Origin: Candidatus Helarchaeota archaeon
GTDB taxonomy: Archaea; Asgardarchaeota; Lokiarchaeia; Helarchaeales; RDOG01
Assembly: GCA_019058315.1 (NCBI GenBank)
Contig: JAHPZH010000006.1
Coordinates: forward strand, 160,001-224,000
DNA: 64,000 nt
Direction of reading: 5' to 3'
The translations under genes and the position numbers were made by a program. Positions 41,684 to 51,460 of the stretch are shown one piece after another. Within the stretch, counting starts at the first letter, position 1, and every line of letters begins with the position of its first letter. The notes under the pieces were generated by a model that was not told the DNA's origin, made no database searches, and saw nothing but the letters and a program-made list of their open reading frames with translations.

Positions 41684-42346
41684 TTATGAACGAACATTTA
41701 TGATTCTGATAAAATCTGCAGTTTCTTCAGCAAAGTCAGAGATCTGTTCAAAAGCTTGTACCATATCAAATACAGTTATTGCAATATATGGAGAATAAGC
41801 TGGTTTAACATTAATTAGTTTTCTTTTAATTTCATAATTAATACCATCTACATCATGTTCTAATTCATTTATTTTCATAGTGCTTTCCATTACTTTATCC
41901 ATTGTTTCACCTAACTGTAAATCTATGGTTTTATGCAACAGTTCCACACATTTTAATGTTATCTCACTCATCTTTTTTAAATCATCTGCGATTGGAGCTA
42001 AAACATCAGGAGATAATATTCCTAGTCGATTAGCAGTAGCATTTGCATTATTTGCAACTGAATCAAGTCTTGAAATTAAATGTGCTAAATCTTCCCTTAC
42101 ACTGGGTGTTAATTCTCCTTTTGAAAGTTCTACCATAACTTTTCTTCGAATTGAGTCGCATTCACGTTCTAAATCATCAATTTTTTTTATGTTTTTACTA
42201 ACATCTGTACCTTTTCCGTCTAGAAATAATTTTATTGTTTTGTCCAGTTCATAAACACTATCATATACTTTTTTTGCGTGTTCTTTCGTTTCTTTTATTA
42301 TGCTAGCCTCACGCCTAGATTTAAACCAATCTATAAGAGTTCCCAT
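41684..42346 (-). CDS. DUF47 / PhoU-like phosphate transport regulator
   Basis: LERECDSIRR, REDL..L...LD.VA, LEHDVD, EQISDFAEETAD; ATG 42346 follows GAAAGTGA. Confidence 0.88.
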   Translation of the reverse strand: MGTLIDWFKSRREASIIKETKEHAKKVYDSVYELDKTIKLFLDGKGTDVSKNIKKIDDLERECDSIRRKVMVELSKGELTPSVREDLAHLISRLDSVANNANATANRLGILSPDVLAPIADDLKKMSEITLKCVELLHKTIDLQLGETMDKVMESTMKINELEHDVDGINYEIKRKLINVKPAYSPYIAITVFDMVQAFEQISDFAEETADFIRIINVRS

Positions 42347-42449
42347 AGTATCACTTTCTTTATTAGATTTTTTCAATAAATTTACTAATAATATTTAAGT
42401 TTTTTTAATACCTACTATCATTATAATAAAAACATTGTTATGAAAAAAG

Positions 42450-43012: not shown

Positions 43013-43210
43013 ATGAGAGAAAAATACAAAATAATAATATTAGTGTCAATATCAATAGCCCTAGGACTACTTACAGGTATTTACTTTGGAATGTTAACAG
43101 CAACTGCATTGAATGTTACTGGTCTTGGTCTAATTAGACAAGAAAAGAATAAAAAAATCCATATTAAAAAGGTGAAAAAGAATTATATCGAAGGAAGAAG
43201 TGGATATTAA
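43013..43210 (+). CDS. Small single-TM protein at the head of the ABC operon
   Basis: GGAG before ATG; hydrophobic IIILVSISIALGLLTGIYFGML followed by a basic tail; overlaps the next gene by 11 bp. Confidence 0.45.
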   Translation: MREKYKIIILVSISIALGLLTGIYFGMLTATALNVTGLGLIRQEKNKKIHIKKVKKNYIEGRSGY

Positions 43211-44387
43211 GCAAAAAATCGCCAGAGCAAAACGACTTAGAAAACCAAAAAACCGTTTAACAGTTTATGCTATGATATTCTTAACTTGTTTTTCAGTCGG
43301 CATATTAATAGGAATGGTGTTTCAAACTGATAAAAGACCTTATCCTGTTGTAACACTTTCTATGGCCTATGGTTCGGAGAAAAAAAAATGGATAAATGAA
43401 ATTACGCAAGATTTCCAAGTTTATGCATTTACTGAATCCCTTAAGAGATATGGTATTCCACTATGGGTTCTTTGTGATTTTAAACCTATGGGATCTCGCA
43501 AAATGGTTCTTTCTACTTTAACAGGAGAAATTCAACCCACAATACTCAGTCCAGCATCCAGTATTTGGATTGACTATATGAATTATAAAGCAATGGCCAT
43601 AGGTGGACATCCACTTATAAATAAAGATGATCCAGAATGGACTAAAAAAGTAATTTATTCCCCAGTAGTTATAGGAACATGGAAAGTCTTTAATGAAACT
43701 TGGGATATTGATGGATTTGACTCTCTTATGAAGATCCCTGGTAGGTTTGCTCATACTGATCCTCAACTATCTAACAGTGGGGCAATGTCACTTCTAATGA
43801 TGGTAGCAACATTCCTTGAAAAAGATGTGTCAGAAATAGAATATGCGGATTTATTTAATCCTGAGGTCTTTCTTAAAATGTCGCTTATTGAAAAAAAATG
43901 TACCTATTACGGAGAGAGTACAGGATTTTTAGGAAAAAAAGCTTTAGATGGAACTCTTGACGTTTTTATGGTATACGAGAGCGTAATAATTGATAATAAT
44001 AAAAAACTTCAAGGAGGAACCATTCCAGCACTACAAACTGGTGGTATGGTAGCGGTATATCCTGAAAATGGTACTTTGTATTCAGACCATCCATTTTGTA
44101 TAATGGCAGGAGATTGGGTTACTCCAATGCAGTTATATGCTGCTAAATTATTTTTGGATTTTATAGATGAACCTAGTACGATTGAAGTAGCTTTTAGTAA
44201 AGGAGGCTTCAGACCAATCAATGCATCCATACTGAATAATCCTGATATAAATGCTTCCTATGTTAAAACTTTTAAAGAATCTAATGGCGTACAATATAAA
44301 CTTACAGTTCCTGAATTCCAGGGAGATGTAAATCCATTTATTTTAAACCAAATACCTGAATTATGGACTATGATGCGTTCAAAATAA
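43200..44387 (+). CDS. Membrane-anchored ABC substrate-binding protein of the family often fused to vWA domains
   Basis: AYGSEKKKW, SPASSIW, SPVVI, HTDP..SNSG, YYGESTGF, YESVII, YPENGTLYSDHP. Confidence 0.8.
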   Translation: MDIKQKIARAKRLRKPKNRLTVYAMIFLTCFSVGILIGMVFQTDKRPYPVVTLSMAYGSEKKKWINEITQDFQVYAFTESLKRYGIPLWVLCDFKPMGSRKMVLSTLTGEIQPTILSPASSIWIDYMNYKAMAIGGHPLINKDDPEWTKKVIYSPVVIGTWKVFNETWDIDGFDSLMKIPGRFAHTDPQLSNSGAMSLLMMVATFLEKDVSEIEYADLFNPEVFLKMSLIEKKCTYYGESTGFLGKKALDGTLDVFMVYESVIIDNNKKLQGGTIPALQTGGMVAVYPENGTLYSDHPFCIMAGDWVTPMQLYAAKLFLDFIDEPSTIEVAFSKGGFRPINASILNNPDINASYVKTFKESNGVQYKLTVPEFQGDVNPFILNQIPELWTMMRSK

Positions 44388-44408: not shown

Positions 44409-46211
44409 ATGCAAAAAACAGAAAAAACAGAAATAGAATTTGAATCTTTTCAAAGAGAAAAATTAGACAGAATAGGTAGATTTGAAAGAAATATATCCTC
44501 AGAAAAAGTAAGAAAACTATCAGACGGGATATTTTTGGCAATATTTTTTGCATTCTTTATAATTCCAATATTTTATATTTTTATTTGGTCGTTATTTAAT
44601 TGGAATGCAATCAACTTTGCCATCTTTAACAACCCCATATCTGGAGCAACTCGTGCGAGTGACATAGGAATCTCTTTACTAAGGTCTCTTTTTGTTGCAT
44701 CAGTTGTAGTACTGGCAGACATAATTATTGGAATTCCTATGGCAATAATATTAGCAAGATATGAATTTCGTGGAAAACGGTTATTGGACACCCTAGTAGA
44801 TTTACCCTTAGCTATTCCAACAGCTGCGCTTGGATTTTCGATATATCTTTTTTGGGGAGCACCCCAGGGAATTGCACCATTACTTGGTATCTATCAAAAT
44901 CCAATTCAAGTATTATCAGGAACAGCTAGTGGCGGAGGACTTATAGAACCAGGATTGTGGTTAATAATACTTGCCCATATACCATTTACATTTCCATATA
45001 TCACAAGAAATTTAAAAGTGGTAATCGGTAATATTGATAAGGACTTCGAAGATGCAGCTAGGAGTTTGGGTGCCCAAAAATACACTGTATTCCGAACAAT
45101 CACCGGTCCTTTAATGAAGGAAGGTTTGATTGCAGGTGCGATTTTAGCATTTACTAGGAGCATAGGTGAAACAGGAGCAACATTATTGGTTTACGGAGTT
45201 GAAGCAACAGCACCGATTCAAGTTGTAACTCTGACTAGATTAGGACAATATCAAGCTGCTGGATTTCTATCTATGATACTAGTTTCTATCTCCATCGGGA
45301 TGTTATTCTTAGTAAAAACAGTTTCTAGAAGAGTCGGTCTACCAGTTCAAAGGATATGGTACGGCTTTGAAAAAATTGTATCTAAGAAACCAGTAAGAGT
45401 TACAAGGGACACTATGACTATGATATTATTCATTGGTGTAATAACTATTCCATCATTTTATGTATTAGTGTACTTGTTTACAAATTTCGTTGGAGTCGAG
45501 GGTGCATTTTACAGTGTTTTCTATGGAGCAGATAATAAATGGGCTGAAATATGGGTTCAACTAATAAATTCACTTTCAATTGCAGGAATTGCAACGCTTG
45601 TAAATATATTAATTGGTATACCTCTAGCTTTCATGATTGTTAGAAGAAAATGGGGAAAATTCAACATGATATTAGATACTGCGGTGGATCTTCCGCTAAC
45701 TGTTCCATCTGCAGCTTTAGGATTTGCAATATTTCTCTTTTGGGGAACATTAGGACCATTTGCACCAACTGGAATATTTACACCGGGTTATATGCTGATA
45801 CTCATTGTACATGTTGTTTTTACTTTACCGTTCATGGTTCGCGTTCTAGTTGCCGTACTTATGAATATGTCACCAGGTTTCGAAGAAGCATCTTCAACAA
45901 TGGGGGCGAGTAGATTTACAACATTTCGTAAAATAACTTTACCAATGTTAAAAACTGCTATTTTAGCGGGTGCAATCATGGTATTTATGAGATCATTAGG
46001 CGAAACTGGAGCCACAGTAGTTGTTATGGGATTAATCAGAACAGTGCCTGTTGGTATAATTGATTATGCAGAATCTATAGAATTTGAAGCTGCAGCATTT
46101 TCAAGTTTTGTCATAATTCTCATATCGTTTGTTTTGATATTTGTTTTAAGATATCTCTCAGGGGAAGAGAGAGAAGAACCATTAATAAAAAGAGGTCTAA
46201 CATATGCCTAA
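44409..46211 (+). CDS. Fused two-domain ABC permease (CysT/ModB/FbpB-like)
   Basis: Two halves, each with DLPL..P.AALGF, an EAA loop (EDAARSLGA / EEASSTMGA) and RS.GETGAT. Confidence 0.92.
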   Translation: MQKTEKTEIEFESFQREKLDRIGRFERNISSEKVRKLSDGIFLAIFFAFFIIPIFYIFIWSLFNWNAINFAIFNNPISGATRASDIGISLLRSLFVASVVVLADIIIGIPMAIILARYEFRGKRLLDTLVDLPLAIPTAALGFSIYLFWGAPQGIAPLLGIYQNPIQVLSGTASGGGLIEPGLWLIILAHIPFTFPYITRNLKVVIGNIDKDFEDAARSLGAQKYTVFRTITGPLMKEGLIAGAILAFTRSIGETGATLLVYGVEATAPIQVVTLTRLGQYQAAGFLSMILVSISIGMLFLVKTVSRRVGLPVQRIWYGFEKIVSKKPVRVTRDTMTMILFIGVITIPSFYVLVYLFTNFVGVEGAFYSVFYGADNKWAEIWVQLINSLSIAGIATLVNILIGIPLAFMIVRRKWGKFNMILDTAVDLPLTVPSAALGFAIFLFWGTLGPFAPTGIFTPGYMLILIVHVVFTLPFMVRVLVAVLMNMSPGFEEASSTMGASRFTTFRKITLPMLKTAILAGAIMVFMRSLGETGATVVVMGLIRTVPVGIIDYAESIEFEAAAFSSFVIILISFVLIFVLRYLSGEEREEPLIKRGLTYA

Positions 46212-47313
46212 TTTGAAAGTACAGAATCTAAATAAAGTATTTGAGAAAGCTAAAGTCTGTGCGGCTAAAGAAATTAACTTGACAGTGAATGAAGGAGAAT
46301 ATTTGACTTTACTTGGACCTAGTGGATGCGGAAAAACAGTCTTTGTGAGAATGATCGCAGGTTTGGAATCGATAGATTCTGGTAAAATTTACATTGATGA
46401 TAAACCAATAAATGAAATACCAACAGAGGACAGAGATATTGGAATGGTTTTCCAATCATACGAAATTTTTCCTTTTATGGATGTATGGGACAATGTTGCG
46501 TATCCAGGTATTGTAAGAAGATGGCCCAAAGAAAAAATAGAAACAGAAACAGTAAAAGCTTTAGAAGTAGTAGGTTTACTCGATCGTGCTGGTGAATTTC
46601 CAGATCAATTATCGGTTCCTGATCTACAACGTATTGCTATTGCAAGAACTCTTGTGACTGGTTCAAAACTTCTATTATTAGATGAACCACTTAGTTCCTT
46701 GGATCAACGCTATTCTGAGGAATTTCGTCACGAACTAAGAAGATTAGTGAAAGATTTAGGTTTAACAGCAGTTCATATCACCCACAACCAAGATGAGGCA
46801 ATGATGATTTCGGATCGTATAGTAATAATGCGAAAAGGAGAATTTCTTCAAGCAGGAACTCCCGCAGAAATATACGAACACCCGAACAGTATTTTTGTAG
46901 CTAATTTTATTGGCGAATCAAATTTTTTGGATGGTAATATAACTGAAATCAAAGATGAAGGATCTATTATTACATTGAGACATGATGGACCCAAGATAAT
47001 TTCGTCAAATAAAGAATTCAAACGAGATACTAGAATAGTAGCGAGTATTAGAAAAGAATTAGTAAAAATTTACCCCGCAGACTCGGATAAACAATATACA
47101 ATAGAAGCTAAAGTAAAAAATATAATTTTTCTTGGATCATTTTTGCGAGTATTTTGTGAACTTTCTAATGAAGACATTGTTGAAGCAAAAATTACCTTTC
47201 CACCAAAATTTGAGTTAAATAAGGGTGATAAGGTTCACGTAAAAATGCATCCTGACAATATATTATTGTTTGAATATCCAGATGATCTGGCTTATGAATT
47301 AGCATTAGATTAA
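46204..47313 (+). CDS. ABC ATPase (PotA/CysA-like, TOBE domain) with degenerate signature motif
   Basis: GPSGCGKT, VFQ, LLLDEP and ITHN are intact; signature reads LSVPD. Confidence 0.93.
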   Translation: MPNLKVQNLNKVFEKAKVCAAKEINLTVNEGEYLTLLGPSGCGKTVFVRMIAGLESIDSGKIYIDDKPINEIPTEDRDIGMVFQSYEIFPFMDVWDNVAYPGIVRRWPKEKIETETVKALEVVGLLDRAGEFPDQLSVPDLQRIAIARTLVTGSKLLLLDEPLSSLDQRYSEEFRHELRRLVKDLGLTAVHITHNQDEAMMISDRIVIMRKGEFLQAGTPAEIYEHPNSIFVANFIGESNFLDGNITEIKDEGSIITLRHDGPKIISSNKEFKRDTRIVASIRKELVKIYPADSDKQYTIEAKVKNIIFLGSFLRVFCELSNEDIVEAKITFPPKFELNKGDKVHVKMHPDNILLFEYPDDLAYELALD

Positions 47314-47325
47314 GGAGTGTAAATA

Positions 47326-48429
47326 ATGTCAGAAGTAATATTAAAAAATGTAATAAAAAAATATAATGGAAAAGCTGGTATATCCATTAGTTTTGAGGTT
47401 AAACCTGGAGAATACTTTACTATCTGTGGACCAACAGGTTCTGGAAAGAGTACACTTATGCGAATGATTGCAGGATTGGAAAAAGTTGACGATGGGCAAA
47501 TATTCATAGGTAAAAAAATGGTTAATAAGGTTGCAGCTGAAGATCGGAAAATAGGGATGGTATTTGAGCACCCAACATATGCAATTTTTCCACATTACAA
47601 TCTACTTGAAAATGTCATTTACGGACCACGAGTGAAAGGTGGTAAAATTACTGAAATTCAAAAAACAGGAAAGGAAATGCTTGAAATGATGCTTCTCGAT
47701 GACAGAGCAGACTTTTATTGGGACGAATCTAGTGGCGGAATGCTACAGCGAATATCTTTAGCTAGAGCGTTGATGACAAGTGATAAATTAATTTTATTAG
47801 ATGAACCACTTTCAGCTTTGGATGCAAAAATTAGAATGGCTTTGCGATATGAACTTATGAGCATCATTAAAGAAGTAGGTGTAACATGTATCCATGCAAC
47901 TCAAGATACGGAAGAAGCATTAATGGTATCAGATAGAATTTTAGTTTTAAATAAAGGAGTAGTCGAACAGATTGGAACTCCTTTAGAAATATATCAACAC
48001 CCCGCAAATCTTTTTGTCGCAAGGTTCATGTGTGGATGTAATGTTATTGAAGGGAAGATAATAAAGAAAAACAATACATTTTCTGAAATTCAATTAGCAA
48101 AAAATATAACAATAAAAGCATCTGATACTTCATTTTCTGAAAATGATAAAGTAGCTATCGCAATTAGAGCTGAACATATAGATGTTGAAGGTGGAAAAGT
48201 GAACGGAGATAATAGTATAAAAGGAGTTATACAATCATCCAGGTTTACAGCAGGAAATAATATTGATGAAATTCTCTTAGAAACTGGTGACGTATTTTTT
48301 TCAAAAAAACACGCGACTCATATATGGTTTTCCAGAGGCGATGATGTCACGATTTCATTTAAGCCAGAAAATATAATCTTATTTCCATATCCTGTAGAAG
48401 GATTAGAAAAAGCATTGGAGCTGAATTAA
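47326..48429 (+). CDS. Second ABC ATPase (PotA/CysA-like) with altered Q-loop and H-loop
   Basis: GPTGSGKS, SSGGM, ILLDEP; VFE in place of VFQ and ATQD in place of xTHD. Confidence 0.93.
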   Translation: MSEVILKNVIKKYNGKAGISISFEVKPGEYFTICGPTGSGKSTLMRMIAGLEKVDDGQIFIGKKMVNKVAAEDRKIGMVFEHPTYAIFPHYNLLENVIYGPRVKGGKITEIQKTGKEMLEMMLLDDRADFYWDESSGGMLQRISLARALMTSDKLILLDEPLSALDAKIRMALRYELMSIIKEVGVTCIHATQDTEEALMVSDRILVLNKGVVEQIGTPLEIYQHPANLFVARFMCGCNVIEGKIIKKNNTFSEIQLAKNITIKASDTSFSENDKVAIAIRAEHIDVEGGKVNGDNSIKGVIQSSRFTAGNNIDEILLETGDVFFSKKHATHIWFSRGDDVTISFKPENIILFPYPVEGLEKALELN

Positions 48430-48442
48430 AAATTAAAAGAGA

Positions 48443-49012
48443 GTGAATTTGATGAAAAGTAAAAATGCATTTGGATTAGCAATTTTATATACAGCACTTG
48501 TAAGTTTCATGATATACATCCAATTAATTAACAGTCCAGTTTTTAATCTTCTTTTTTGGATTGGAATAGCTGTTTACATGGCATCAGGAGCTTTTTTCAT
48601 TGGAAGTAGTTATATTGACAATAAAAAATATATGACAATGGGCTTAATAGTCGGAATTGCATCATGGACTCTATTATTAATCGGTGCAAGCTGGGGTGTT
48701 TCAATAAACCACGATATTATAGAAAGGTGGAAATTATGGGACGCCTTATCAAGTTATATCGATGGAATGGATGAATATCTTGCCTTTTTCATAGATAATC
48801 TTGATGAAATAATTAAAAACGCCGATCTACAAGCATTTTTTTCAGCCGAAATCATAGTACAGCAATGGTTTGTCGGACCATTTGTATATTATGTCATTGT
48901 ATCAATAACAACTGTTATATCAATAATAATTGGAGTATCCATTGGATTTATTTCCTTCAAAGATGAGCAAAAAGTTAAGGAAATATCAAGTAGTTATTCA
49001 AAAGGTCTTTAA
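48443..49012 (+). CDS. Four-TM membrane protein, last gene of the ABC operon
   Basis: Four hydrophobic segments; 13-bp gap after the ATPase; paralogous to the N-terminus of 50651..51460. Confidence 0.7.
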   Translation: MNLMKSKNAFGLAILYTALVSFMIYIQLINSPVFNLLFWIGIAVYMASGAFFIGSSYIDNKKYMTMGLIVGIASWTLLLIGASWGVSINHDIIERWKLWDALSSYIDGMDEYLAFFIDNLDEIIKNADLQAFFSAEIIVQQWFVGPFVYYVIVSITTVISIIIGVSIGFISFKDEQKVKEISSSYSKGL

Positions 49013-49102
49013 ATTAATAATTTTTTTTATTTCTAATTATTGTTTTTAGAATTAGTGAGATAATTATAAAATTTTAAAAAAATTGAAGGAGGTGATAAAT
49101 TT

Positions 49103-49816
49103 ATGAAGAAAACTTGGCTAATTTGTGATTTTCATATTCACACAGATATAAGTGACGGAAAAATACCAATTAATGAAGTGATAAAACTCTATGGAGAACA
49201 CCATTTCGATGTTATCAGTATTACAGATCATATTGTTGATAGTAAATGTCTAGAGAAACGAGAAAAGAATAATGAACCTTTATATTCATTACAAAAAGAA
49301 AATTTCCAAGATTATTTAAGATTACTATGGAAAAAATCAGTTGAAGCATGGGAAAAATATAATATGTTAATTATCCCAGGAGCAGAAATTACAAATAATA
49401 CTAATGAATATCATATACTTGCAATAGATATTAAAGAATATATTGAACCTGATTTATCTGTAAAGGAGATAATACAAGAAATTCATAAACAAGGTGGTAT
49501 TGCAATTGCTTGCCATCCACATTATAAATCAAATGATGGTCCACAGCCATTTTTACATCTATGGAATAACCATGATAAATATGCGAATTTGTTTGATGCT
49601 TGGGAAGTAGCTAATCGTAATGAGCTATTTAATGTAATAGGTCTCCAAAAATTCAATTATATTGCTAATTCAGATTTTCATGAAGCTAAACATCTTTATT
49701 CTTGGAAGACTTTTATAGGTGCTGTGAAAAATAGAGAAGCTATAAAAACAGCTATTCATAAAAATGATAGTGTAGCTATCTTTTTATATAGGAAAAATAA
49801 CAAGATAAAAATTTAA
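49103..49816 (+). CDS. PHP-domain metal-dependent phosphoesterase
   Basis: DFHIHT..SDG, ITDH, PGAEIT, CHPH, NSDFH; perfect GGAGGTGA RBS. Confidence 0.92.
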   Translation: MKKTWLICDFHIHTDISDGKIPINEVIKLYGEHHFDVISITDHIVDSKCLEKREKNNEPLYSLQKENFQDYLRLLWKKSVEAWEKYNMLIIPGAEITNNTNEYHILAIDIKEYIEPDLSVKEIIQEIHKQGGIAIACHPHYKSNDGPQPFLHLWNNHDKYANLFDAWEVANRNELFNVIGLQKFNYIANSDFHEAKHLYSWKTFIGAVKNREAIKTAIHKNDSVAIFLYRKNNKIKI

Positions 49817-49925
49817 AAAAAATTGAGCAAATATGAAACTAATAAATATTTTTGAATCGCTTTTTTGGAAAAAAATTATAATTATTTATTTGAAATCCAA
49901 TATTATGTTTCTTTTCTTAATAGAT

Positions 49926-50026
49926 TGAATAAACTAAAAATAAATCTTAATTAGTCAACTAATTAAAAGTAATATTATTGAATTGAACAAAATATTAAAT
50001 TTCAAAAAAAAATTGAACAAAAATAT
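49926..50026 (+). promoter_or_regulatory. Phased sites upstream of lrp
   Basis: AATTGAACAAAA direct repeat at 49981 and 50011; palindrome TTAATTAG-TCAA-CTAATTAA at 49947-49966; TGAATA at 49926. Confidence 0.5.
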
Positions 50027-50137
50027 AATTATATAGGAAAAAAATTAATTTTTTTTAATAACTTTATAAAGGAAGTTACAAAATGTTATTAAATACAGAA
50101 TCTAATCTTTATACGTTCAATTGTTGAAGGTTTACAA

Positions 50138-50599
50138 TTGGAAAAAGAATACGAAATTGATGAATTAGACCGACAAATCATAAGAATATTATCAAATGAC
50201 TCAAAAACTAATTATCGAGAGATATCTAAAACGTTGGGAACAAGTTTAGGAACTGTTCATAACAGAATTAATAACTTAAAAGAAAACAATATAATTAAAA
50301 AATTTAGTGTTGATGTTGATACATTTAAACTGGGATATAAGATAACTGCTATTATTCTTATGCAAATAGAAGGTAAACATATTCAACAAATAGAAGAAAA
50401 GTTATCCAAGGAACCTAATATCTATAATATTTATGATACAACAGGGGAATGGGATTGTATCATTACCGTTAAATTCAAAAAAATGGAAGATCTAAATGAA
50501 TTCCTAAAAAAAATTAATAAGATGGATCATATTAAACGAACTATTACATCTATTTGTTTAAATGTTATCAAAGAGAATTCATTTCTTCCAACAAAATAA
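50138..50599 (+). CDS. Lrp/AsnC (FFRP) transcriptional regulator
   Basis: IDELDRQIIRIL, HTH (GTVHNRINNL), IYDTTGEWD RAM domain. Confidence 0.95.
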   Translation: MEKEYEIDELDRQIIRILSNDSKTNYREISKTLGTSLGTVHNRINNLKENNIIKKFSVDVDTFKLGYKITAIILMQIEGKHIQQIEEKLSKEPNIYNIYDTTGEWDCIITVKFKKMEDLNEFLKKINKMDHIKRTITSICLNVIKENSFLPTK

Positions 50600-50650
50600 A
50601 TAAGATTTATTATTGAGTAGTTTTAAGAATTTTTTTTAGGTAAAAATTAA

Positions 50651-51460
50651 ATGAAAATTAAAAGTTTTGAAGGTTTAGCAACAATTAAATTAATTTTAGC
50701 TATTAGTTCTCTTTCTATATCATTATTTCATATTATTATACCAGTCAATATTGATCCTTTAATGAGTTTATTTTATTGGGTTGGTGGTGGTGTGTATATT
50801 ATAACTGATTTATTATTTTTAATTACTATTAAAGATGATAATTTAGATGGAATGAATGTTTCATTCATTTTTGATTTAATTATCTGGACAATACTAATGT
50901 GGGGTATCATTCGTCATATAATGGATGCAAGTGTGGGTGAAATGGACTATTATAGCGAATTTCTAACACCTGAGGGAAGTTATAGTATAATACAAGGATT
51001 TTATTTGGCTCAACTTATTTTAATTATTATTTCTTTTTGTTTAGGATTTGGTATTTCAATAGTAAAAAATTTAAGAGAAATTGGAATATCGAGAAAAATA
51101 AAAAGATTTTGTCCTAATTGCCACCAAAAAATCTTTGGGGAAAGTAATTTTTGTAAAAAATGTGGATTAAATTTCGAGATTTATGAAGTTATAGTATACG
51201 ATGGTAAATATGATTTAATAGAATGCCCAAAATGTAATGAATTAATTGAATATATAGAAGATTTTTGTCCTAATTGTGAGGTAGCATTAGACCTTTGTGT
51301 ATTTTGTAAGAAATTTATAAAAGATGAAGATGAAACGATTAAATGTCCAAAATGTAATTCAAATTTTCATAAAAATGAATTAATTAAATGGGTTAGAGAA
51401 AAAAAAGCATGCCCTTTTTGTTATAAAGATATTAGTCTAGATTTACAAGAAAAACTATAA
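50651..51460 (+). CDS. Four-TM membrane protein with double zinc ribbons and a C-terminal RING-like finger
   Basis: CPNC..FCKKC, CPKC..FCPNC, CVFC..CPKC...FHKNE..W...CPFC. Confidence 0.78.
   Translation: MKIKSFEGLATIKLILAISSLSISLFHIIIPVNIDPLMSLFYWVGGGVYIITDLLFLITIKDDNLDGMNVSFIFDLIIWTILMWGIIRHIMDASVGEMDYYSEFLTPEGSYSIIQGFYLAQLILIIISFCLGFGISIVKNLREIGISRKIKRFCPNCHQKIFGESNFCKKCGLNFEIYEVIVYDGKYDLIECPKCNELIEYIEDFCPNCEVALDLCVFCKKFIKDEDETIKCPKCNSNFHKNELIKWVREKKACPFCYKDISLDLQEKL

Follow-up and report, generated by a model that had tools for sequence, protein, structure and literature searches.

The 64-kb window analysed here, a stretch of 64,000 nucleotides (nt) from a Candidatus Helarchaeota archaeon (C6:160001-224000 in a genome of 5.8 Mb and 29% GC), encodes two proteins that share a membrane domain of four transmembrane (TM) helices. 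The short form, P0001, is the product of the terminal gene of an operon for an ATP-binding cassette (ABC) importer. The long form, P0002, is encoded downstream on the same strand and joins the four-TM domain to zinc ribbons and a RING-H2-like finger; it is called the RING protein below. Contigs of this genome, which is itself denoted G000, are given as C-numbers (C2, C3, C5, C6, C10 and C11), and proteins of the family set as P-numbers.

Comparison of the two proteins shows that P0001 and P0002 are true paralogs. An ungapped pair of 43 amino acids (aa), put forward in a first-pass annotation of the window, is present in both (residues 39-81 of P0001 and 43-85 of P0002), with 13 identities and not the 12 counted originally. 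BLASTP aligned the proteins over 79 columns with 30% identity at a pairwise expectation value (E) of 7e-7. Their Smith-Waterman score of 101 was reached by none of 1000 whole-sequence shuffles (mean 38, z 9.5) and by none of 1000 hydropathy-preserving shuffles within 12-residue blocks (mean 41, z 7.8), so the similarity is significant against the shuffled TM controls that the annotation had called for. In addition, a profile made from three other paralogs, with P0002 left out, retrieved P0002 at E 2.8e-8 among the 9189 open reading frames (ORFs) of at least 60 aa in the genome, the best membrane ORF outside the family appearing at E 0.04. The common four-TM layout noticed earlier is also seen, with four hydrophobic peaks in like order in P0001 (11/36/64/152) and P0002 (14/40/69/120). 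The similarity is confined to TM1-TM3; TM4 stands at the same place in both and the preceding loop differs, the long outside hairpin of P0001 being without counterpart in P0002.

The AlphaFold2 (AF2) model of P0001 (predicted local distance difference test, pLDDT, 84; predicted template modelling score, pTM, 0.73) is a four-helix membrane bundle in which TM3 and TM4 are prolonged into an outside helical hairpin. Loop charges (+2 at the N terminus, -8 or -4 in loop 3 and +5 past TM4) place both termini of the four-TM proteins in the predicted cytoplasm and the acidic hairpin of the short form outside. No membrane-embedded charged residue is conserved in the family and, given a four-TM fold with both ends cytoplasmic, the domain therefore probably serves for packing or as an adapter, and not as a channel or an enzyme. 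No Pfam or NCBIfam model matches it. Tetraspanin, MARVEL and claudin models of Pfam, in particular, gave no match at E 0.1, and P0001 contains no Cys at all; with neither a Pfam match nor a Cys in the outside loop, it does not show the sequence signature of the tetraspanin, MS4A, claudin or MARVEL families. At the level of structure, Foldseek found nothing in the PDB at E 0.001 (best E 0.14), while a wide VIA search returned tetraspan proteins at Z 10-13, which is within the helical-bundle background. Language-model look-alikes all scored <0.9 and indicated no informative family.

A profile search of 1.84 billion (1.84e9) representative proteins recovered 12 members. In a scan of 400 genomes of the phylum, clear matches to the four-TM domain were found in one, the window's own genome, with eight hits; a ninth, divergent paralog (C11:310809-311618) gives a full-length match to the metagenomic member P0013 (6.7e-31), which brings the total in the genome to about nine. 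An earlier four-sequence profile gave one weak match and nothing else in 40 relatives, and word-indexed homology searches with P0001 and P0002 each retrieved only the query itself. An exact-sequence look-up of P0002 likewise turned up no recorded contig. On these searches the family is very small, specific to the Helarchaeales-type Asgard lineage, and new. Its members fall into three architectures, namely short forms of 155-189 aa, proteins with one C-terminal zinc ribbon (P0007, P0010 and P0014) and proteins with zinc ribbons plus a RING-like finger (P0002, P0013 and C11:310809). P0011, P0012, P0015, P0016 and three paralogs of this genome stand alone in unrelated neighbourhoods. The profile search for distribution and fusion partners, as proposed in the annotation, has accordingly yielded a very small family with zinc-ribbon and RING fusions, several members of which are unlinked to transporters. 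Weak profile matches (E about 1e-5) were also obtained at G040:C87:120145-120438, G223:C214:1991-2293 and G198:C286:8800-9102; these are N-terminal regions of proteins of ~950 aa from one genus of the same class, and may be distant fused relatives. Furthermore, at C3:519880-529574 (minus strand) a paralog of 154 aa lies ~530 nt upstream of apparent FtsX-type permease and ABC ATPase genes, followed by a gene for a protein of 2177 aa, all on one strand; as assigned from the translations, this arrangement may link the family to ABC systems in a second way.

The ABC operon comprises, all on the plus strand, a small single-TM ORF, an anchored binding protein, a fused permease, two ATPases and the four-TM gene. 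With SBP_bac_11, PF00528 (two halves) and PF00005 (two genes) in one operon, it encodes a type I ABC importer. The best NCBIfam models of the permease are of the ModB, CysT and WtpB types, of which only modB_ABC reaches its cut-off, the others remaining below equivalog level; its nearest relatives are named Candidatus Helarchaeota. An oxyanion is hinted at as the substrate, because the permease is ModB/CysT-like and a PhoU_div gene is its neighbour. The P0001 gene may begin with a GTG 13 nt past the stop of ATPase 2 or with the ATG at 48452, 22 nt past it; the latter is likelier, since the database form has 186 aa and relatives begin with MK.K.

That one copy of the four-TM domain ends an ABC operon, as first annotated, applies beyond the window. 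Five operons have a four-TM gene in that slot, i.e. in the window, at C3:1156801-1162513, and in L014 (a Logan contig), L065 (a Helarchaeota assembly) and L068 (a JGI contig), and the gap between ATPase 2 and the four-TM gene is 22-26 nt throughout. In these ABC-linked sets the permeases are 65-70% identical and the four-TM proteins only 26-38%; the short forms make up a single clade (support 83/91) with a well-conserved motif in the outside hairpin. In the genome, 4 of the 9 family genes lie <3 kb from an ABC ATPase gene, compared with 4.5% of all ORFs. Because the terminal slot is kept in five operons, the short form is probably an accessory membrane subunit of the importer, as conserved gene order alone suggests. 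Prediction of a complex between the fused permease and the short four-TM protein, both given as alignments, scored 0.00 with a poorly folded partner and weighs neither way.

Downstream of its four-TM domain, P0002 carries two zinc ribbons and a finger. The ribbons make up one DZR domain, and not two double zinc ribbons as initially described: residues 154-210 span the whole profile and score 32.2 bits against a cut-off of 27.3. The finger has the pattern C-x2-C-x12-C-x2-C-x4-H-x2-E-x10-C-x2-C. It departs from the eight-ligand RING-H2 pattern (C-x2-C-x9-39-C-x1-3-H-x2-3-[CH]-x2-C-x4-48-C-x2-C) in having seven ligands, the sixth position being occupied by Glu243, which aligns to the Cys that is the sixth ligand in RNF126, RNF24 and Arkadia; the RING-like domain with Glu at one ligand position had been correctly recognized. 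The profile of the cassette matches RNF126 at 2.8e-9, and also RNF24, Arkadia, AMFR and RNF38. A full-length alignment of P0002 put TM4 against the zinc ribbons and was left out of the folding. In Foldseek, the AF2 model of the finger (pLDDT 84) superposed on the RINGs of RNF126, RNF24, RNF12 and RNF165 with a root-mean-square deviation of 1.1-1.5 Å over 48-50 residues, and by this superposition the modelled finger has the RING fold, a type defined by a two-strand sheet, a central helix and two interleaved metal sites. The AF2 model of the cassette also matches the ZnF-RING tails of IFT-A and GATOR2. The positions that usually contact the ubiquitin-conjugating enzyme (E2) are kept in P0002 (F218, W247 and P255), and the finger is predicted to face the cytoplasm. 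Literature searches turned up no account of RINGs from Asgard archaea that are membrane-anchored and have Glu as a ligand, which does not prove that none exists.

Features of the importer operon, the RING gene and their surroundings (positions in the window)
Feature	Position	Strand	Basis
PhoU_div (DUF47) gene, upstream of and divergent to the ABC operon	41684..42376	-	Pfam PF01865, E 1.8e-30
Small single-TM ORF, first in operon	43013..43210	+	Counterparts in L065, L066, L068 and the C3 operon, each preceding the binding-protein gene
Membrane-anchored solute-binding protein	43200..44387	+	Pfam SBP_bac_11, E 1.8e-8; hydrophobic N-terminal stretch in translation
Fused double permease, two BPD_transp_1 halves	44409..46211	+	Pfam PF00528, E 8e-32, 2 stretches
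ABC ATPase 1 with TOBE_2 tail	46204..47313	+	Pfam ABC_tran 1.9e-29, TOBE_2 2.8e-7
ABC ATPase 2 with TOBE_2 tail	47326..48429	+	Pfam ABC_tran 9.9e-28
Short-form four-TM protein P0001, 189 aa, terminal operon gene	48443..49012	+	ORF; same slot in five operons
T8 run, 9 nt past the stop of the P0001 gene; likely end of operon transcript	49021..49028	+	Read directly
PHP-domain phosphoesterase, intervening gene	49103..49816	+	Pfam PHP 1.9e-7; NCBIfam CehA/McbA domain 3e-16
Lrp/AsnC regulator, intervening gene, ends 51 nt before the RING gene	50138..50599	+	Pfam AsnC_trans_reg 6e-17, HTH_24 1e-12
T8 run between lrp and the RING gene	50630..50637	+	Read directly
RING protein P0002, 269 aa	50651..51460	+	ORF
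Four-TM domain of P0002, residues 1-145	50651..51085	+	BLASTP, shuffles, profile, hydrophobic peaks
Two zinc ribbons of P0002, one DZR-type domain, residues 154-171 and 192-209	51110..51277	+	Pfam DZR, E 1.2e-7; CxxC positions
RING-H2-like finger of P0002, residues 216-257; Glu243 codon 51377-51379	51296..51421	+	Pfam, profile, AF2 model

Oligo-T runs serve as terminators in archaea, and two of them are found between the operon and the RING gene, together with the PHP and lrp genes. A spacer of 321 nt separates the latter two, and searches of 10 relatives at E 1e-20 yielded no ortholog of the PHP gene. At the other end of the operon, a single-TM ORF of 47-65 aa precedes the binding-protein gene in every operon version examined, with counterparts of 47-49 aa at L065:4702-4845, L068:218-361, L066:4684-4833 and C3 about 1156650-1156800. 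These ORFs have the motif KEK[YH]K...GL.TG..FG.ITG in common, and the putative product looks like a conserved micro-protein subunit. PhoU_div genes also attend this non-Pst importer, one being divergent upstream in the window, two upstream in L065 (1375-2815) and one in the terminal slot in L066/L067 (L066:10150-10818).

The finger of P0002 is one of many in this genome. Fingers of the form C-x2-C...C-x2-C-x4-H-x2-E occur in at least 13 paralogs, 12 of them with predicted TM helices on unrelated anchors. Across the wider set of paralogs the sixth-ligand residue is E in 13, H in 5, D in 1 and C in at least 2, all possible metal ligands; since the soluble paralogs hold His, Asp or Cys in this column, it is argued to be a metal ligand. 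The coding pattern H-x2-E-F-[LF]-E-W-L-K had 10 occurrences in this genome and none in the 399 other genomes of the phylum. Glu-type genes with a zinc-ribbon/RING/zinc-ribbon arrangement and unrelated TM anchors also lie in tandem pairs or triplets (C2:109771-112861, C3:1135961-1138556, C11:141260-142925, C11:207866-210254 and C5:660559-662139). The ubiquitin machinery ascribed earlier to Asgard archaea is encoded here as well, with genes for ubiquitin, the activating enzyme (E1) and E2; genome-wide there are 6 UQ_con, 5 ubiquitin-like and 8 ThiF matches. A compact ubiquitin operon (C10:103165-106226) contains genes for E1 (C10:103165-103896), E2 (C10:104171-104539) and a ubiquitin-like protein (C10:104634-104834), together with a small RING of 87 aa whose ligand 6 is His and a further E2-like gene.

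We lean, by a small degree, towards the explanation that P0001 and P0002 are two diverged members of a small lineage-specific membrane family, the one an operon-terminal importer subunit and the other a RING-fused anchor. The short form would most likely serve as an accessory membrane subunit of the six-gene ABC importer operon, and its conserved acidic hairpin, which lies outside between TM3 and TM4, may contact the permease loops or the anchored binding protein. The long form most likely arose by local duplication of the terminal operon gene and subsequent fusion to a zinc-ribbon and RING cassette; in the family tree, the four-TM domain of P0002 pairs with the ABC-linked clade as its sister (support 80/79). 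The product, a membrane-anchored RING-H2-like protein, probably acts on membrane targets as a ubiquitin ligase (E3) or as a RING-type assembly module.

Several observations weigh against this explanation. As regards the short form, a more distant version of the operon (L066/L067) has no four-TM gene and carries PhoU_div in the terminal slot. The four-TM domain is not transporter-specific, because distant members stand alone beside unrelated genes. The sister placement of the P0002 domain is moderately supported and involves long branches. As regards the finger, zf-RING_2 (PF13639) matches it at E 8.9e-6 with 26.3 bits, under the gathering cut-off of 27.3, and it is non-canonical, with Glu as ligand 6, a spacing of four residues from ligand 4 to ligand 5, and Tyr258 at the linchpin. 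Its best structural matches include the RINGs of GATOR2 and IFT-A, which act as scaffolds.

The last of these points leads to an alternative in which the cassette is not a ligase but a zinc-stabilised assembly module that links the 13 membrane paralogs mutually or to a common partner. The top Foldseek matches, to IFT-A (E 1.1e-4) and to the ZnF-RING tails of WDR24, WDR59 and MIOS in GATOR2, agree with such a role, as do the matches of the cassette profile to WDR19, WDR24 and SEH1 fusion constructs, the replacement of one canonical Cys ligand by Glu with Tyr as linchpin, and the frequent occurrence of cassette genes in tandem pairs. However, the best sequence matches are the active RING-H2 ligases listed above, and the E2-contact positions are conserved in the paralogs (Ile/Phe after ligand 1, the helix Trp, often Pro after ligand 7 and mostly Lys after ligand 8). 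Moreover, the small RING protein of the ubiquitin operon of the same genome, with His at position 6, falls in the same alignment as the Glu-type fingers. We regard a purely structural cassette as a tentative proposal, and on the unlikely side.

A second alternative concerns the short form, whose gene may be a mere co-transcribed passenger with a function unrelated to the importer, the domain being a generic membrane anchor. This would fit with family members alone in unrelated contexts or fused to single zinc ribbons, with a protein that evolves far faster than the transporter subunits and with a fold that is a generic four-helix bundle. It appears rather improbable to us, as slot and spacing are kept in the five operons, two of them paralogous in one genome, despite the low identity of the proteins, and as the outside motif is strongly conserved in the ABC-linked clade.

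Finally, the first-pass annotation had proposed that the two proteins, a transporter-associated membrane module and an E3-bearing version of it, could make up a system for ubiquitin-dependent control of the importer. The RING protein would be an active membrane E3 that docks by its shared four-TM module, through like-with-like packing, on the importer or its four-TM subunit and tags the importer with ubiquitin. The paralogy, the ABC link of one protein and the RING fusion of the other are borne out, and the TM domain of P0002 is the closest paralog of the ABC-linked clade. It could also be noted that the RING gene lies 1.6 kb downstream of the operon on the same strand, that such nearness of two of about nine paralogs in 5.8 Mb is improbable by chance, that genes for ubiquitin, E1 and E2 are present, and that the finger is on the predicted cytoplasmic side. 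Nevertheless, the P0001 and P0002 genes do not look like parts of a single system, and we consider the proposal very unlikely: the RING gene is outside the operon, beyond the PHP and lrp genes and two T8 runs; the four other four-TM operons have no adjoining RING gene; only the P0002 gene has an ABC ATPase gene within 10 kb, the other 12 of the 13 Glu-type RING genes lying farther away; the hairpin conserved in ABC-linked forms is absent from P0002; tandem duplication accounts equally well for the closeness; the RING gene, shortly after lrp, borders a nitrogen-assimilation cluster and may belong to that unit; and the RING cassette is carried by many membrane anchors of unrelated type.

These observations bear on the question of how membrane proteins first came within reach of ubiquitin signalling. 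The genome described here holds a lineage-specific set of RING-like proteins that are anchored in the membrane and have an unusual Cys2-His-Glu site. The anchor of one of these recurs in the product of a conserved additional gene in an ABC operon, and this offers a concrete pair and an importer for testing membrane-directed ubiquitylation in archaea. If the RING protein did act on the importer, this would represent, in an archaeon, a forerunner of the ubiquitin-dependent way in which eukaryotes down-regulate nutrient transporters, and one built from a lineage-specific adapter domain. In its own right, the short form is a candidate for a new accessory subunit in a type I ABC importer, an uncommon thing. 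Should neither role hold, what is left is an orphan membrane family of small size and an additional RING paralog.

With respect to known systems, the position of the short form recalls oxyanion ABC operons that end with PhoU or PhoU_div (the pstSCAB-phoU pattern), where a non-transporter gene likewise occupies the last slot; in a related Helarchaeota operon PhoU_div stands exactly at the place of the four-TM gene, and in the window it is divergent upstream. PhoU_div, however, is a soluble helical protein with no sequence relation to the four-TM protein, which is integral to the membrane. In its architecture the short form resembles tetraspan auxiliary subunits (tetraspanins, MS4A/FcεRI beta, the claudin-fold TARP and Cav gamma), having four TM helices, predicted inside ends and TM3/TM4 extended outside. 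Against a tetraspanin cluster of the ESM Atlas its template modelling score was 0.62 by query and 0.43 by target, and VIA gave Z of 12.3 for FcεRI beta, 11.5 for Cav gamma and 10.4 for claudin-15, all within the helical-bundle background. The tetraspan subunits may be taken as a working analogy for an accessory-subunit role, rather than as established homologs.

For the RING protein, three comparisons can be made. A ubiquitin-operon system of Caldiarchaeum with a small RING finger protein has been reconstituted (PMC5654768). The corresponding small RING of this genome (C10:105004-105267), beside E1, E2 and ubiquitin genes, has the same finger type, C-x2-C...C-x2-C-x4-H-x2-[H/E]...W...C-x2-C. 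P0002 differs from it in being membrane-bound and in having Glu instead of His at position 6, and does not belong to the ubiquitin-operon class, the nearest E2 gene (UQ_con, C6:266123) lying about 56 kb from its own at C6:210651. The tails of GATOR2 (WDR24, WDR59 and MIOS) and IFT-A (IFT121, IFT122 and WDR19) resemble P0002 in that a zinc ribbon is directly followed by a RING. They are the top Foldseek hits of its cassette (E 1e-4 to 5e-3), and Pfam Zf_2nd_IFT121 is weakly matched. WDR19 also has Glu at the aligned ligand 6, but has lost ligand 5, whereas the His is invariant in P0002-type fingers; in addition, these tails are carried by propeller-solenoid proteins and mainly hold complexes together. 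The third comparison is with eukaryotic TM RING-H2 E3s (AMFR/gp78, synoviolin/Hrd1, RNF13 and ZNRF3), from which P0002 is set apart by an unrelated TM domain, two preceding zinc ribbons, Glu at ligand 6 and four residues between ligands 4 and 5. It has in common with them the arrangement of a membrane anchor followed by a finger of RING-H2 type on the predicted cytoplasmic side; its cassette profile matches the RINGs of AMFR, synoviolin, RNF13 and ZNRF3, and P0002 has the Trp helix and the C-P-x-C last pair.

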